33,583 bases of DNA from positions 1 to 33,583 of IMG/VR virus record IMGVR_UViG_2684622669_000021. One strand, written 5' to 3'. The DNA is from a virus (Duplodnaviria; Heunggongvirae; Uroviricota; Caudoviricetes). Positions 17,302-32,165 of the stretch are shown here, piece by piece; positions within the stretch are counted from its first letter, which is position 1; each line of letters starts with the position of its first letter. Both the position numbers and the translations under genes were made by a program. A model generated the notes under the pieces. The model saw nothing but the letters and a program-made list of their open reading frames with translations. It searched no databases and had not been told where the DNA came from.

Positions 17302-17378
17302 GTGGCATTAGCTCAGTTGGACAGAGCAACCGCCTTCTAAGCGGTTGGTCGCAGGTTCGAATCCTGCATGCCGCGCCA
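17302..17378 (+). tRNA. tRNA-Arg, anticodon UCU (reads AGA), with encoded CCA
   Basis: Manual cloverleaf: acceptor GTGGCAT/ATGCCGC (one G-U pair); D-stem GCTC/GAGC; anticodon stem ACCGC/GCGGT with loop CTTCTAA (U33, anticodon TCT, A37); variable loop TGGTC; T-arm GCAGG-TTCGAAT-CCTGC; discriminator G; CCA. Related to but distinct from chromosomal argU. Confidence 0.9.
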
Positions 17379-26391: not shown

Positions 26392-27357
26392 TTACCCCCT
26401 GAAGCCCGGCGGAATTTCGGTATCCGGTTCAGAAATGTGATTCACACAACGCTGTACAGGCGAACGCCCCAGACGAATAACCAGCTCATCCCATTTTTCG
26501 CGAAGCTTTGACGGGCTCATGACGTTTTTTACCCAGAAGGGATCCCGCTGCACCCGACCAAACATTTCGCAAATTTGTCTGTGAGTTCTGCCATCCAGCA
26601 TCCGCATTGTGCGCACATCATTGGCCCATGCAGCCCAGTTGGGTTCTTTCGGTCGCATGATTTCGCCATCATCGCTGGCAGCCTGCTCGTAAAGACTCAC
26701 GATTCGTCCCCAGATCCACTGCGCACACGCTAAATCTTCCTGGCTACCCCACTGGCGTTTTTTCGCACTGAACACAACCGCGTCAGGGTGTCGGGTTAAA
26801 AAATCCTGTTCAGCCGTCTGCATGTCCGGTTGCGAAGCTTCCGGACGAGAAGTGTTTTTATTCTCTGTAGTGATCTCTGTTGTATTCTCTGTAAGATCAT
26901 CAGGCCATTTTGACCCGATGACATTGTGTCGTTTTGAACCAATGGAGCGTGTCATTTTGGCCTCTTCCATCGTGTCATTTTGACCTGATGGAGCGGCGCA
27001 TTTTGACCTGATGGATTCGCTCACTTTGCCACCATCTAAAAGCTCGCTCTCGTAATTAATCGTGTAAAAATTAGTCATGTCACGCTTTGATTTGTTGAGC
27101 TTTTCGCAACGCAAAAGCCCCAGCGCTTTCAGACTTGCAAATGCGCGTTTTAACGTTGACTCTGACCAGAACGGGAACTGTTCCAGCCATTGTTCTGTTG
27201 TGTTATAAATCCAGCGAACACCATCACATTCCATGCCGGAACCGGTATCTCTCAACCAGTAATGCAGCTGCTGTAACACAATGGCTTCGTTCAGACCTAT
27301 TTTCATCGCCAGCTGAGTGTTAATAACCAGTGGGCGTTCAGCAAAAAGAAGACTCAT
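26392..27357 (-). CDS. Replication initiation/replisome organiser protein (O-like), about 321 aa
   Basis: Position upstream of the DnaC-like gene. N-terminal HTH-like region. Start uncertain: ATG at 27355-27357 or TTG at 27411. Confidence 0.6.
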   Translation of the reverse strand: MSLLFAERPLVINTQLAMKIGLNEAIVLQQLHYWLRDTGSGMECDGVRWIYNTTEQWLEQFPFWSESTLKRAFASLKALGLLRCEKLNKSKRDMTNFYTINYESELLDGGKVSESIRSKCAAPSGQNDTMEEAKMTRSIGSKRHNVIGSKWPDDLTENTTEITTENKNTSRPEASQPDMQTAEQDFLTRHPDAVVFSAKKRQWGSQEDLACAQWIWGRIVSLYEQAASDDGEIMRPKEPNWAAWANDVRTMRMLDGRTHRQICEMFGRVQRDPFWVKNVMSPSKLREKWDELVIRLGRSPVQRCVNHISEPDTEIPPGFRG

Positions 27358-27859
27358 AATTCCATCCGGCTTTTTGTTGATATTGCTGACGATACGCACG
27401 CTTGAAAGCAATGGCTTTTTCTATAAGCTCGTCAGTCTCACGTTCCACAACAGCTGGATCCGCAAAAAGCAGCCCGGACTCCACCACATCGCCATATTCT
27501 TTGTTTAACCCGGCGATCATGTACGTAATGCTTTTTCCGTCAGTAATTTCACAATACAACCTGAAATCGCTGATCCGGATAGCCTCCATAATTGCCGGAA
27601 TCAGCGCCGTGAATTTTTCACGCTTATCCCTGGTGTCGATAGCTTTCCAGCGTTCGAATATCTTCACCCTGTTAACGCCCAGCGCCCGTTGATCAACCGC
27701 GCCATCATCAAACGTGACGCGATGAACATCGATGTTCGGGCGTTCTTTCAGAGCCCAGAATGCTTCCGTGATTAATATCGTCGCCTGCTCCTGCGTCATT
27801 CCTGGTCGGCATACCCAGGCATCCAGAGCCTCGCGAGCCTGCTCAGGAGTGAATATCAT
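27338..27859 (-). CDS. Hypothetical early protein at the cII/YdaT position (173 aa)
   Basis: Lies between the Cro-like gene and the replication genes. Assignment is by position only. Confidence 0.45.
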   Translation of the reverse strand: MIFTPEQAREALDAWVCRPGMTQEQATILITEAFWALKERPNIDVHRVTFDDGAVDQRALGVNRVKIFERWKAIDTRDKREKFTALIPAIMEAIRISDFRLYCEITDGKSITYMIAGLNKEYGDVVESGLLFADPAVVERETDELIEKAIAFKRAYRQQYQQKAGWNYESSFC

Positions 27860-28118
27860 TGTTCACCGCCAGTGATTCATTCGACATACACTTATTTTCA
27901 CAAGGTAGTCCATCTGTTGGGTTGGGATAAATGTCAGGGCGAAGTTCGTGGGGAGTAATTTCCCAATTCAGTAATGCACAGAGTGACGACACGCGTTCAG
28001 CAGGAACCTTGCCTTTAATGAACCACTTGCCTACGGCCTGGGAGCTAATGCCAAAGTGTTTGCCAATGTCAGTTTTCGACATTTTTTTAGAGATCTTATC
28101 GTGAATTTGATTACTCAT
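27843..28118 (-). CDS. Cro/YdaS-like HTH transcriptional regulator (91 aa)
   Basis: HTH segment SKTDIGKHFGISSQAVGKWFIKGKVPAERV. Divergent from the repressor gene. Start at the ATG at 28116-28118 after GGTGGAAAG; the track ORF extends to a GTG at 28145. Confidence 0.6.
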   Translation of the reverse strand: MSNQIHDKISKKMSKTDIGKHFGISSQAVGKWFIKGKVPAERVSSLCALLNWEITPHELRPDIYPNPTDGLPCENKCMSNESLAVNNDIHS

Positions 28119-28157
28119 ACTTTCCACCAGTACTATTAATTTCACCTACGCTACCAT

Positions 28158-28230: not shown

Positions 28231-28641
28231 ATGAGTAAAATAAACCATCCAATATTTGCTGAGAGAGTTCGGCAAGCAATGAGCGAACATGGCTGGTCGT
28301 TAGCCGGTCTGGCTAAAAAGGTTATGCTGTCCCATACCGCTGTGCGTAAGTGGGCAACAGGAGAAACCATTGCCAGCGGAGAAAGATTAAAAAGACTTGC
28401 CGCGGTAACAGGAAAACCAGAACATTGGTTTTTTATGCCGCTAAATGAACATTCAAAGGAAGAAGATGCACCACCACTAATCCAGCTTGACGACAAAGAA
28501 AAGGCGCTATTGTCCCTTTTTAATCAGTTGCCAGAAACGGAAAAGCTGAGACTAATCATGCACACAAAAAGCATTCTTCATGAAATGGATCTTCTAAAAA
28601 ACGATGTATACGACATAATCAATGATATTCAAAAACAATAA
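28231..28641 (+). CDS. Prophage repressor, XRE-family HTH, RacR/CI-like (136 aa)
   Basis: N-terminal HTH FAERVRQAMSEHGWSLAGLAKKVMLSHTAVRKWATGETIASGERLKRLAAVTG. Divergent from the Cro-like gene and followed by its own terminator. Confidence 0.7.
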   Translation: MSKINHPIFAERVRQAMSEHGWSLAGLAKKVMLSHTAVRKWATGETIASGERLKRLAAVTGKPEHWFFMPLNEHSKEEDAPPLIQLDDKEKALLSLFNQLPETEKLRLIMHTKSILHEMDLLKNDVYDIINDIQKQ

Positions 28642-28819: not shown

Positions 28820-28975
28820 ATGGATACTATCGATCTTGGCAACAACGAATCTCTGGTGTACGGCGTGTTTCCAAACCAGGACGGCACCTTCACCGCAATG
28901 ACGTATACCAAAAGCAAAACGTTTAAAACCGAAAATGGTGCCCGTCGCTGGCTGGAAAGAAACTCAGGTGAGTGA
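28820..28975 (+). CDS. Small early protein (51 aa), YdaF-like
   Basis: ORF below the track cutoff, read directly: MDTIDLGNNESLVYGVFPNQDGTFTAMTYTKSKTFKTENGARRWLERNSGE, with a GAGG RBS. Family assignment is from memory. Confidence 0.5.
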   Translation: MDTIDLGNNESLVYGVFPNQDGTFTAMTYTKSKTFKTENGARRWLERNSGE

Positions 28976-28976
28976 T

Positions 28977-29105
28977 ATGGATTTTGACACAATCATGGAA
29001 AAGGCTTACGAAGAATACTTCGAAGGCCTTGCCGAAGGCGAAGAAGCTCACAGCTTCAACGAATTTAAACAGGCGCTTTCCAGTTCGGCAAAATCTAACG
29101 GCTGA
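28977..29105 (+). CDS. Small acidic early protein (42 aa), YdaG-like
   Basis: MDFDTIMEKAYEEYFEGLAEGEEAHSFNEFKQALSSSAKSNG. The ATG lies 1 nt after the upstream stop. Confidence 0.45.
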   Translation: MDFDTIMEKAYEEYFEGLAEGEEAHSFNEFKQALSSSAKSNG

Positions 29106-29134: not shown

Positions 29135-29353
29135 ATGCAGAAACGAGAACCCGTCATCATCGCGCCAGACTATACCGATGATGAACTTTATGAGTGGATG
29201 CGCCAGAAAATTAATGCAGCGCAGGATCTGAAATGGGCCAATGAAGCCAGGGCTAAGCAGGCTGAAAATCTGTCCGCTCTGGAGCAGGATATCACCAGGC
29301 TGGAAAAAGCAGCGGCATTAAGCATTGCCAGAATGATTACATACCCGCGTTAA
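29135..29353 (+). CDS. Small early protein (72 aa), unknown function
   Basis: GAGGA RBS. Helical charged protein MQKREPVIIAPDYTDDELYEWMRQKINAAQDLKWANEARAKQ... Confidence 0.5.
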   Translation: MQKREPVIIAPDYTDDELYEWMRQKINAAQDLKWANEARAKQAENLSALEQDITRLEKAAALSIARMITYPR

Positions 29354-29375
29354 TAGCTAACCAACGAGGCTAATA

Positions 29376-29705
29376 ATGGAATTTAAAGATTTACCAATGC
29401 AATTCCAGGAAATGGCAGCGAATATAGTTCGTTCCCAACTGGCGACTCTTGACCTGAGTACCGTAGAAAAAGAAACCATCGATACTATATCCGGTAACGT
29501 GCGTCGTGCCTTTATCGGTCTGTACGAAGAGAAGCAGCTCTCTGATAACCAGGATTTACATGAAAAATACTTCCTGGATCTAATGGACATCATTAATAAG
29601 GGGTTTGGCTTGTTAATGGAAAAGAAAGGGATTCGGATAGAACCCCTTGAAAATTGCTTCGTAACAAGAAGCATCAATTCTTTTGATTCAAAACAAGAGA
29701 ATTAA
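29376..29705 (+). CDS. Hypothetical protein (109 aa), AT-rich gene
   Basis: GAGG RBS 6 nt before the ATG. Its 3' end overlaps the 3' end of the convergent minus-strand gene by about 32 nt. Confidence 0.55.
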   Translation: MEFKDLPMQFQEMAANIVRSQLATLDLSTVEKETIDTISGNVRRAFIGLYEEKQLSDNQDLHEKYFLDLMDIINKGFGLLMEKKGIRIEPLENCFVTRSINSFDSKQEN

Positions 29706-29949
29706 TTACAGATTTAACATGCTCTTTCTCATGATTGAAGCTCTCAGGGTTGAAAGTGCCCGGCTGAAGCGAGTCGATATAATCAACGAGATTCTTTCGT
29801 ACCGTTTCATCTTTATTCATGGCAGATGCAAGGTATGAAATTGCTAACAATGTTATATCACTACGCGCCGCAGCATGCTGTAGTGTTTTATCAAAATCAT
29901 TAATTTTCCGTATAAGAGAGTTAAGAGTTTCATTGACATCAAACCCCAT
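29674..29949 (-). CDS. Hypothetical protein (91 aa) on the opposite strand within the early-left operon
   Basis: Start at the ATG at 29947-29949 (MGFDVNETLNSLIRKINDFDK...) after a strong AGGAGG-ATGAA RBS. AT-rich. The track ORF 29674..30027 carries a 26-aa extension. Confidence 0.55.
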   Translation of the reverse strand: MGFDVNETLNSLIRKINDFDKTLQHAAARSDITLLAISYLASAMNKDETVRKNLVDYIDSLQPGTFNPESFNHEKEHVKSVINSLVLNQKN

Positions 29950-30062
29950 TTCATCCTCCTGAGGGTTAGTAATTAAGGAGTTCTCCACGGGTGAGGTGGA
30001 GTGCGTGCGCCGGACACGGGTGAGCATCCGGCACTGACAATACCAACGTCAACGGCGAAGAC

Positions 30063-32165
30063 ATGACTGAGATTGAGGAGAATATGCTCCTGCCGGTTTC
30101 AGGTCAGATTCTGCCTGTTCGATGGCTGGCACAGCACGGCAGCGAAAAACCGATCACACACGTTTCGCGGGGCGAACTACGCGCATTACATAACGCACAG
30201 GATGAAAAACTTCCCGCCGTTACCGCGCTGGCCATCTCAAATAAAGCAGCGCAACTCGAACCGCTGGAAATTCGCGATCTCCACAAACTGGTTCGTGACA
30301 CTGACAAAGTTTTCCCTAATCCTGGTAATTCAGACCTGGGACTGATGACTGCTTTTTTCGAAGCCTACCTGGGCGCTGACTACACCGATCGCGGTCTGCT
30401 GACAAAAGAGTGGATGAAAGGAAATCGTGTTTCACGCATCACCCGCACGGCTTCCGGTGCTAATGCCGGTGGAGGGAACAAAACCGATCGCAATCCGAAT
30501 TTAGTACACACCTTCGATACGCTGGATGTGGAGATTGCAGCGGCCACACTTCCGATGGATTTTAATATTTATGAAATTCCGGGCAGCGTTTATCGTCGCG
30601 CAAAAGAAGTCGTCCGGAAGAAAGAAAGTCCGTTCAAAGAATGGTCCGCGGCACTTCGCGCAATCCCGGGTATCCTGGATTATTCCCGCGCCGCTATTTT
30701 TGCACTTATCCGGAGCGCACACCCTGAGTTTTATCATTACCCGGGACGTCTTCAGGGGTATATCAACGCCTATTTAACAGAGACTGATCACGAGAACCCT
30801 TCCGAGGAAACTCTCGCTGCTGCACGACATACACCGGAAAAAGATATCCTGGAAGAAGTTAACCGCGAACTGGCTGCTGAACGCGAAACAGAAGAAGAAA
30901 AAAATAATGAGGAAAAATCACAACCGTCTGACGCAATGGCAGATGAACAGGCAACGGCTGAAACAATGGAACCGGATACAACTGAACATCGCCAGGACAC
31001 GCAATCGCTGGATGCTCAGGCACAGATAGATCCAGTTAATCAGGTAAAAGTTACCGCTGACGAAGTAAACAAAATTATGCAAGCAGCCAATATCAGCCAG
31101 CCTGACGCCGATAAGTTGCTTGCGGCCTCTCGCGGTGAATTTGTTGCAGGGATTAGCGACCCGAATGATCCGAAATGGGTGAAGGGGATTGAAACCCGCG
31201 ATTCTGTGAACCAGAACCAACAAGAATCGGAACAGAACGACCAGAAAGCGGAACAAAACAGCCCAAATGCGTTACAAAACGAGCCAGAAACGAAACAGCC
31301 TGAACCAGTGGCGCAACAGGAAGTGGAAAAAGTTTGCAATGCCTGCGGTCAGTCTGGCGGGGATAACTGCCCTGACTGTGGTGCGGTGATGGGCAACGCA
31401 ACATACCAGGAAACATTCGATGACGAGAATCAGGTTGAAGTTCAGGAAAATGATCCGGAGGAAATGGAAGGCGCTGAACATCCACAAAAGGAGAATGCTG
31501 GCAGCGCTCAGGACCACGCCAGCGATAATGAAACTGGCGAGACGGCAGATCCCTTAATTGCAGTGAACGGTCATCACATTATCACATCCACCAGCAGAGT
31601 GTGGTACCACCTGATGATCGACCTTGAAACAATGGGAACCAACACCAATGCGCCCATCGTGGTTATTGGTGCGGTTTTCTTCGACCCACAAACAGGGGAA
31701 ATCGGGCCAGTATTTTATATCGTTATCAGTCTGACTGACGCAATGAATACAGGGGCTGTTCCTGACGGTGGAACCATCGAATGGTGGCTGAAGCAGTCCA
31801 GTGAAGCCAGAGCTGCCATTTTAACAGACCAGGTAAAACTGAAGGATGCCCTTTCGCGGTTTCGGGAGTTCATCAACGAATACTCAGATGAAAAATTAGT
31901 TCAGGTATGGGGTAATGGTGCAACTTTCGATAACGCAATTTTGCGCACCTCATACGAACACCTGGACATCCCCTGCCCGTGGCGCTACTACAACGATCGC
32001 GATGTACGCACAATCGTTGAGCTGGGGAAAGCCATAGACTTCGATGCCAGAACGGCTATTCCATTCGAAGGTGAGCGCCATAATGCACTTGATGACGCCC
32101 GTTACCAGGCAAAATACGTTTCAGCTATCTGGCAAAAACTGATCCCGAGTCAGGCTGATTCTTAA
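30063..32165 (+). CDS. RecE-like protein: RecE N-terminal/linker region fused to a C-terminal DEDDh 3'-5' exonuclease domain (700 aa)
   Basis: N-terminus [36 protein letters not shown]..., the acidic Gln/Glu-rich linker and the Zn-ribbon [20 protein letters not shown] are recognised from RecE (exodeoxyribonuclease VIII). The C-terminal 200 aa carry DnaQ-like motifs: Exo I MIDLET, Exo [14 protein letters not shown], Exo [16 protein letters not shown]. Confidence 0.7.

Follow-up and report, generated by a model that had tools for sequence, protein, structure and literature searches.

What is the role of two small genes that run into each other at their 3′ ends inside the early operon of a prophage? 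The question is raised by the IMG/VR record IMGVR_UViG_2684622669_000021 of a Caudoviricetes virus, the whole 33,583 nucleotides (nt) of which were analysed and are called the window here. In the window, a plus-strand gene, P, converges on a minus-strand gene, M (Table 1). From the letters alone, an initial annotation had described a convergent pair of 109 and 91 amino acids (aa) with an overlap of about 32 nt and an AGGAGG ribosome-binding site (RBS) in front of M; it had taken the pair for an acquired cassette lying where a RecE-like gene lost its N-terminal coding region, and had considered a toxin–antitoxin, exclusion or defence function possible. The geometry is confirmed by the coordinates, the two stop codons giving a 3′ overlap of 32 nt. 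Its gene content assigns the locus to a Qin/Rac-like lambdoid prophage, in which it forms the promoter-proximal portion of a dicBF-type early-left operon. The reading preferred here, with a probability of roughly 0.6, is that P is a regular operon gene and M an independently transcribed accessory gene of the lysogen type (a moron) in a hypervariable antisense slot.

The slot was traced through 80 IMG/VR loci with the N-terminal module of P, through additional loci for other variants of P, and through 5426 complete Escherichia coli genomes, to which all genome counts below refer. Between P and the leader of the small RNA (sRNA) DicF, these prophages carry one of several cassettes. P of 109 or 106 aa is found with M, in one of two alleles that share 78–80% aa identity; P of 124 aa is found with M2, an unrelated 73-aa antisense gene (phrog_7249), or with an empty slot, in which the stop codon of P abuts the leader. 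P variants of 135, 133 and 122 aa are found with antisense genes of 77 aa (A77, phrog_10348; PPompW phages, O157:H7), 92 aa (A92, phrog_18692; M family) and 100 aa (A100, phrog_8894), respectively. M, M2, A77 and A92 share their ATG, GGAGG and upstream leader. A100 has an equivalent ATG; its leader is kept in the far part, from hairpin 1 upstream, whereas nearer the ATG hairpin 2 has diverged and the GGAGG is A100's own. On the right the variable DNA is bounded by the start codon, on the left by a point within the 3′ end of P or shortly beyond it. Homology among the M and M2 cassettes was rejected because neither BLASTP nor hhalign gave a signal, and A77 and A100 likewise show no BLASTP similarity to M. 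On these comparisons, at least four unrelated antisense genes, all of them small orphans and M among them, are exchanged at one slot between P and the DicF leader. The A100 gene is without any annotation in its best matches (H73–H75).

M is present in 198 genomes (21 records of allele 1, 178 of allele 2), M2 in 88, A77 in 650, A92 in 127 and A100 in 65. The core of P, at a coverage of at least 80%, is found in 727 genomes, and flanking sequences in ~3400. More than half of the genomes with this type of P lack M (727 with the P core vs 286 with M or M2), and P with the same C-terminal region but without M makes up the majority of carriers. Because the P core is far more widespread than M and M2, and many slots are empty, P and M are by their distribution not a dedicated pair. 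The survey of related prophages that the initial annotation had proposed thus found the pair variable in presence, as expected of a cassette, and not co-inherited as an obligate unit.

Whether M is a gene at all can be asked of allele 2, represented by NZ_CP011416 (locus L003), which is 93% identical to the window across the pair region. The 243 nt of M outside the overlap contain 40 substitutions and P contains nine, and the M reading frame is unbroken in L003 despite a nucleotide divergence of 16%. The ratio of nonsynonymous to synonymous change (pN/pS) is 0.37 for the M frame, in which synonymous changes are in excess, against 0.78 for the two remaining frames; it is 0.17 for M2, ~0.13 for codons 1–55 of P and 0.23–0.36 for codons 56–100. 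Among related loci, the open reading frame (ORF) of M is unbroken in 33/33 and 56/58, and its length varies by in-frame insertions or deletions of five codons only. In the variants of 96 and 86 aa (L147, L148, L021 and L037), one HESFN unit of a 15-nt tandem repeat in the C-terminal third has been gained or lost.

The M family is small: its homologues form 11 clusters among 5.8 billion proteins, all from E. coli, and an HMMER search of 1.84 billion representative proteins with the M profile gave one true distant homologue, the Salmonella protein P0138 (E=1.3e-4; 34% identity). A92 has 47% identity to P0138 and 28% to M allele 2, and these distant relatives (28–34% identity to M) occupy the same slot in E. 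coli and Salmonella. The M-family alignment had no match among the GTDB species representatives.

A chance ORF in AT-rich DNA would be the simplest account of the minus-strand frame, and long spurious ORFs do exist locally, such as one of 106 aa antisense to P; start calls for M by the Prokaryotic Genome Annotation Pipeline (PGAP) also disagree (145 aa vs 91 aa), and M has no PHROG family. However, a chance ORF would hardly stay open over 16% divergence with frame-specific substitutions, follow a canonical AGGAGG by 5 nt, vary in length only in frame and have distant homologues in the same slot, and this account is considered very improbable. By their substitution patterns, P and M are both confirmed as genuine genes under purifying selection, and the earlier description of M as a gene lying antisense to the plus-strand early-left operon is upheld. 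The 106-aa ORF (29357–29677, minus strand), which runs across nearly all of P, has no noticed RBS and looks like a chance ORF. As to its start, M begins at the ATG at 29949, because PGAP chose this codon in NZ_CP011416 (the 91-aa form), because M2, A77 and A92 have this ATG and the leader in common with M (A100 has the equivalent ATG and a more diverged leader), and because the extension of the M frame upstream of it is open in some loci and closed in others. RefSeq start calls vary, M being 145 aa in L001 (6375–6812) and 91 aa in L003 (2875–3150).

The cassette-like appearance of the pair also holds up. The G+C content is 38.9% over 29376–29949 and 36.7% over 29541–29949, and the latter segment is the minimum of all 409-nt windows across the 33.6 kb (mean 49.7%, standard deviation 3.3%), so that the sliding-window check bears out the AT-richness first noted by eye. 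Compared with locus L004, P differs at none of the 165 nt of codons 1–55 and at 23 of the 135 nt (17%) of codons 56–100, which places a recombination breakpoint at codon ~55 of P, at the start of the low-G+C block. The block is mosaic, and both P and M are missing from the Qin prophage of E. coli K-12. As in other morons, the M block is thus an insertion between conserved genes with atypical composition and a presence/absence polymorphism.

P itself is divided by this breakpoint. Its N-terminal module is common to phrog_6937, 1363, 2151, 9419 and 33007 and is conserved among lambdoid early-left operons; a Foldseek search of BFVD with P matched only an uncharacterised stand-alone 52-aa protein of phage phi191, a homologue of this module. 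The model of P has three helices and a tail, residues 92–109, for which a predicted local distance difference test score (pLDDT) <50 suggests disorder. Across prophages, the N-terminal module of P is joined to at least four different C-terminal modules. The C-terminal module of P in the window has a relative outside E. coli: residues 58–99 are homologous to the C-terminus of a 214-aa helix-turn-helix (HTH) protein of Salmonella (38% identity, E=3e-7). The Salmonella homologue of M converges on the gene of this HTH protein with a 41-nt overlap and is preceded by a homologous leader; it lies antisense to an early-left-type operon with an integrase, a repressor, a Cox-like gene, the 214-aa HTH gene and, later, an ExoVIII-type exonuclease. 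Because the Salmonella protein on which the M homologue converges has a homologous C-terminus, the C-terminal module of P and the M-family gene have been inherited as a unit; the breakpoint seen against L004 agrees with this.

Such co-inheritance would suit a functional two-protein pair (toxin–antitoxin or effector–immunity) formed by M and P through its C-terminal module, with the conserved 3′ overlap coupling their expression. The Salmonella block with its 41-nt overlap agrees with this, as do A92, which converges on another P variant with an overlap of 41 nt as well, and the 58 IMG/VR loci with M, all of which (58/58) also have P. Yet the P core and its C-terminal module mostly occur without M, facing an empty slot or the unrelated M2; the P tail in the overlap is the part predicted to be disordered; and the two genes are convergent rather than bicistronic, with no matches to toxin–antitoxin or defence systems. 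In addition, a terminator-like hairpin of M with its U-tract (AAGGGGTTCTATCCGAATCCCTT followed by TCTTTTCC) lies within the codons of the C-terminal module, so that co-inheritance is expected from adjacency alone. An equivalent hairpin is found 20 nt past the stop of the Salmonella M homologue (L084 549–572). That the M hairpin is built into P codons would give a reason at the RNA level both for the co-inheritance of the C-terminal module and M and for their 32-nt overlap, and a functional pair is considered quite unlikely. The arms of the hairpin coincide with codons of the C-terminal module that specify its conserved residues, KG and EPL, an apparent dual constraint on RNA and protein. A plus-strand terminator-like hairpin at 29655–29673 was set aside, since it is not conserved in allele 2.

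The toxin–antitoxin form of this proposal, raised by the initial annotation, fares no better. In type II systems, the two genes are co-directional, co-occur obligately and encode a known domain, and none of this applies to P and M. Type I systems such as bsrG/SR4 and txpA/RatA of Bacillus prophages have convergent transcripts that overlap at their 3′ ends; one of the partners is a non-coding RNA, and the toxin is a membrane peptide, short and hydrophobic. P and M resemble them in convergence and overlapping 3′ ends inside a prophage, and their 32-nt overlap would let the two mRNAs pair; unlike them, both are selected protein genes with hydrophilic products and no transmembrane segments. The maximal Kyte–Doolittle score over 19 residues is 1.09 for M and 0.53 for P, and the grand average of hydropathicity is ~-0.4 for both. 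Because the genes are convergent, their co-occurrence is non-obligate, no toxin or antitoxin domain (or toxin–antitoxin model) is matched and neither encodes a small hydrophobic peptide, a toxin–antitoxin pair is unlikely on sequence grounds.

A closer likeness is offered by sieB of the Rac prophage. Like M, sieB is a single gene in the promoter-proximal cluster that is transcribed against the early-left operon with overlapping 3′ ends. The order in Rac is ydaF (DUF1391), the converging sieB (4-nt overlap), the KilS sRNA, kilR and recE; in the M lineage it is ydfABC, P, the converging M, DicF, dicB/kil and the exonuclease. Beyond either antisense gene, the operon strand thus continues with an sRNA, an FtsZ inhibitor and the exonuclease. 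It is the DUF1391 gene itself that sieB converges on, whereas M converges on P, which comes three genes after ydfA (DUF1391). The products differ: SieB has 162 aa and transmembrane segments (maximal 19-residue score 2.19), and M is soluble. No similarity was found between M and Rac SieB (BLASTP E=9) and M does not match the SieB family in Pfam, so by comparison of order and protein M is a positional analogue of sieB and not a SieB homologue.

In the preferred reading, P is an ordinary early-left gene made of a helical N-terminal module that is conserved and a C-terminal one that can be exchanged, and M is a separate, self-contained antisense unit with a common RBS and start, a structured 5′ leader, a selected ORF and a terminator-like hairpin inside P. 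The placement of this hairpin, along with compaction at the cassette boundary, would account for the 32-nt overlap. By analogy with sieB in Rac, M opposes an operon that the prophage repressor keeps off and may therefore be made in the lysogen; derepression of the operon may shut M off through convergent transcription. M is acidic (isoelectric point 5.8) and hydrophilic, has no transmembrane segment, and is modelled by AlphaFold2 as four helices at low confidence (pLDDT 66). Such a small, soluble helical protein would most likely bind a protein partner as a factor of benefit to the lysogen, in exclusion, defence or regulation.

The leader upstream of M is conserved in K-12 Qin, in loci with an empty slot and in Salmonella, and its M-sense strand is predicted to fold into two hairpins and a helix in which CUCCU pairs with the AGGAG of the Shine–Dalgarno (SD) sequence. 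Hairpin 1 has three invariant G·U pairs, which would be A·C mismatches on the operon strand. Fold z scores range from -1.5 for the leader of the window to -4.8 for those of relatives; 95.5% of the cells of the leader alignment are paired, and three pairs show compensatory changes (in Salmonella and L091), a weak signal, as 72/500 shuffles reach three covarying pairs.

Several observations weigh against M being such an autonomous unit. The leader is equally conserved where there is no antisense gene (K-12 and empty loci), and what is conserved may be of use to the dicBF transcript rather than to M. A scan for consensus sigma-70 promoters on the minus strand between the M start and DicF found none in the window or in an intact relative; the best candidate, TTTTCA-17-TAAACT, was picked by eye, matches 8/12 positions and is disrupted by a deletion in the window. 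Its weak candidate -10 element, TAAACT (TGTTATTAT in Salmonella), lies just 5′ of hairpin 1 in relatives and is replaced by the deletion joint in the window. The terminator scan that gave the M hairpin was not enriched over shuffled sequences (4 found vs 2.4 ± 1.6). Finally, the exclusion or lysogen-benefit role of M is drawn by analogy from position and orientation only, because no family, defence-model or fold match was obtained for M or any of the cassettes.

The context of the slot allows another role to be considered. The dicBF operon of Qin has been described (PMC5069750, PMC10448788), with ydfABC, a long untranslated region (UTR) with dicF, dicB and ydfD, and the published accounts do not include P or antisense genes. 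The operon is toxic on overexpression, and a subpopulation of cells activates its promoter spontaneously (PMC10448788). The antisense unit could then be mainly cis-regulatory, its convergent transcription or antisense RNA damping read-through into the toxic dicF and dicB, with the peptide secondary. This would fit unrelated cassettes that agree in orientation, leader and position just upstream of DicF and dicB, an M transcript that would end inside P, and the reported toxicity and spontaneous activation of the operon. Against it stand the purifying selection on the encoded proteins of M and M2, whose ORFs are intact and change length in frame only, the absence of an antisense gene from K-12 Qin and many other prophages, and the intact M ORF in the window, which has lost DicF and dicB. 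A mainly regulatory unit is judged unlikely, and a role in cis only is less likely given the apparent purifying selection on four unrelated protein families in the slot.

The loss of DicF and dicB results from a deletion next to the pair. Relative to the leader and exonuclease gene of L003, the window matches the leader through 30039 and the exonuclease gene from codon ~108 onward starting at 30025; the two share a 9-nt microhomology at the joint. Lost in the deletion were DicF, dicB and kil, the part of the DicF leader beyond the joint and ~120 codons at the 5′ end of the exonuclease gene, so that M retains only 90 nt of leader upstream. Expression of M in the window is uncertain because all else upstream of it was taken. 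Both division-inhibitor genes of the operon have been lost from the window. The junction was seen in 0/5426 genomes and in 0/58 IMG/VR loci with M, and no Rfam match to DicF or another sRNA was found near the pair in the window.

Replacement of the recE 5′ end by the pair was ruled out, since L001 (NZ_AP017610) carries the identical pair with the stretch from DicF (Rfam 76.7 bits) through dicB (as a fragment) and kil to the 823-aa exonuclease intact on the operon strand beyond M, and the comparison with L003 gives the same answer; the window is identical at 29300–30039 to several genomes, L001 being one of them. The exonuclease truncation is, by this alignment, a private microhomology deletion beside the pair and not caused by it. 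Of the initial statement on the RecE-like gene, the 5′ truncation beside the pair therefore stands, and the substitution by the pair does not, the deletion being a separate event 90 nt upstream of M. The "RecE-like" gene is of the YdfE type, with an N-terminal Exonuc_VIII fragment and an Rv2179c-like DEDDh 3′–5′ exonuclease domain; it has no match to the RecE-type nuclease domain, and recE or "RecE family" is only a RefSeq label on homologous DNA. Full-length homologues are found in L001, L089 and L091.

As the initial annotation had supposed, neither protein belongs to a described family. P and M matched no Pfam family at E≤0.1, and NCBIfam and PADLOC gave noise only. The best PADLOC-DB v2 hits, BrxA for M (E=0.024) and PtuA for P0138 (E=0.0045), were short and below a meaningful score, and P, M2, A77, A92 and A100 had none. 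In PHROGs, P and the alternative cassettes matched only families of unknown function. Sequence searches of the PDB with M and with the M-family and P profiles gave nothing below E=0.1, and Foldseek against the PDB gave best values of E=1.1 for the M model (pLDDT 66) and E=4.4 for the P model (pLDDT 71), both models being of low to moderate confidence. No publication on P, M or the slot cassettes was found in a literature search. An orphan gene that is genuine but uncharacterised, M occupies a slot in a mosaic prophage region, a common situation of a familiar kind (moron or variable slot). The slot resembles lambdoid morons and prophage hotspots such as those of P2/P4 (PMC9122126) in its G+C content, which is lower than that of the flanks, in presence/absence and replacement polymorphism at a fixed site between conserved sequences, and in its small uncharacterised genes and terminator-like element; it differs from P2/P4-type hotspots in holding no defence protein known to PADLOC and in that its cassettes are single genes of 73–100 aa.

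A bolder proposal, put forward as speculative and thought improbable, is that the slot is an undescribed diversity hotspot of about one-fifth of complete E. coli genomes, O157:H7 included, from which at least four unrelated effectors would be expressed in the lysogen behind an SD-sequestering leader, as exclusion or anti-phage factors or as modulators of DicF/DicB, with M and the C-terminal module of P as co-evolving partners. One or another cassette is present in ~1100/5426 genomes, and the slot adjoins the well-studied toxic DicF/DicB module, on published maps of which these genes do not appear. If the cassettes are expressed in the lysogen, the slot would offer new small prophage effectors in a compact form that is easy to test; interest in it would rise should they prove to act in exclusion or defence in the lysogen or to modulate DicF/DicB.

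Table 1. Features of the P/M locus and its surroundings (positions in the window)
Feature	Position	Strand	Remarks
P	29376-29705	+	109 aa; TAA stop at 29703-29705
P N-terminal module (codons 1-55)	29376-29540	+	Helical hairpin, pLDDT ~86; 0 nt differences from L004
P C-terminal module (codons 56-109)	29541-29705	+	Within the low-G+C mosaic block; last 10 codons overlap M
M	29674-29949	-	91 aa; TGA stop at 29674-29676; ORF itself open over 29674-30027
Shine–Dalgarno AGGAGG of M	29955-29960	-	5 nt before the ATG; common to the unrelated M2 and A77 and to A92
Terminator-like hairpin and U-tract of M	29648-29626	-	26 nt past the M stop; within P codons KKGIRIEPL; from terminator scan
Leader remnant	29950-30039		ydfC–dicF "long UTR" of the dicBF transcript; M-sense 5′ UTR
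Leader hairpin 1 (M sense)	30007-30034
Leader hairpin 2 (M sense)	29983-30001
Anti-SD/SD helix (M sense)	29956-29980
Deletion joint	30031-30039		Joint 30039/30040; microhomology GCACTGACA common to the leader and exonuclease codon ~112
YdfE-like exonuclease, 5′-truncated	30063-32165	+	700 of ~823 aa; Exonuc_VIII fragment and Rv2179c-like DEDDh domain (Pfam)
ydaS/ydaT-like genes	27338-28145	opposite to repressor	Pfam YdaS_toxin and YdaT_toxin matches
DicA/RacR-type HTH repressor	28231-28641	+	Pfam HTH_3, E=6.9e-10; first operon-side gene of the divergent immunity region
ydfA homologue (DUF1391), promoter-proximal	28820-28975	+	Pfam DUF1391, E=1.7e-28; DUF1391 label in the 100%-identical L001
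ydfB homologue	28977-29105	+	RefSeq annotation of L001 5678-5806, moved by the constant L001–window offset
ydfC homologue	29135-29353	+	ydfC annotation under matching DNA in E. coli genomes

The neighbouring genes agree with the assignment of the locus. The repressor, the divergent cro-like genes and ydfA/B/C of a dicBF-type operon are found in the window, DicF and dicB are not, and the exonuclease gene is followed by a DUF4224 (xis-like) gene and an integrase. Qin of K-12 (dicA, ydfA-ydfB-ydfC-DicF-dicB-ydfD) is like the window on the repressor side, in ydfA/B/C and in the long leader, with ydfC joined directly to the "long UTR" before DicF; K-12 has neither P nor an antisense gene, whereas the window has P and M but its DicF and dicB are deleted. 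In the relatives L001, L002, L004 and L060, DicF lies ~340 nt beyond the M start. Some relatives have the isrK and C4 antisense RNAs and a Rha or derepression gene in the position of DicF (L003 3730–4578 and 3781–3966; L086 5338–5602), and in L003 a relBE pair is inserted between the repressor and ydfA. Elsewhere in the prophage, a tRNA gene (17302–17375, plus strand; Rfam 69.4 bits) lies on the strand opposite to the large late-gene ORFs that surround it.

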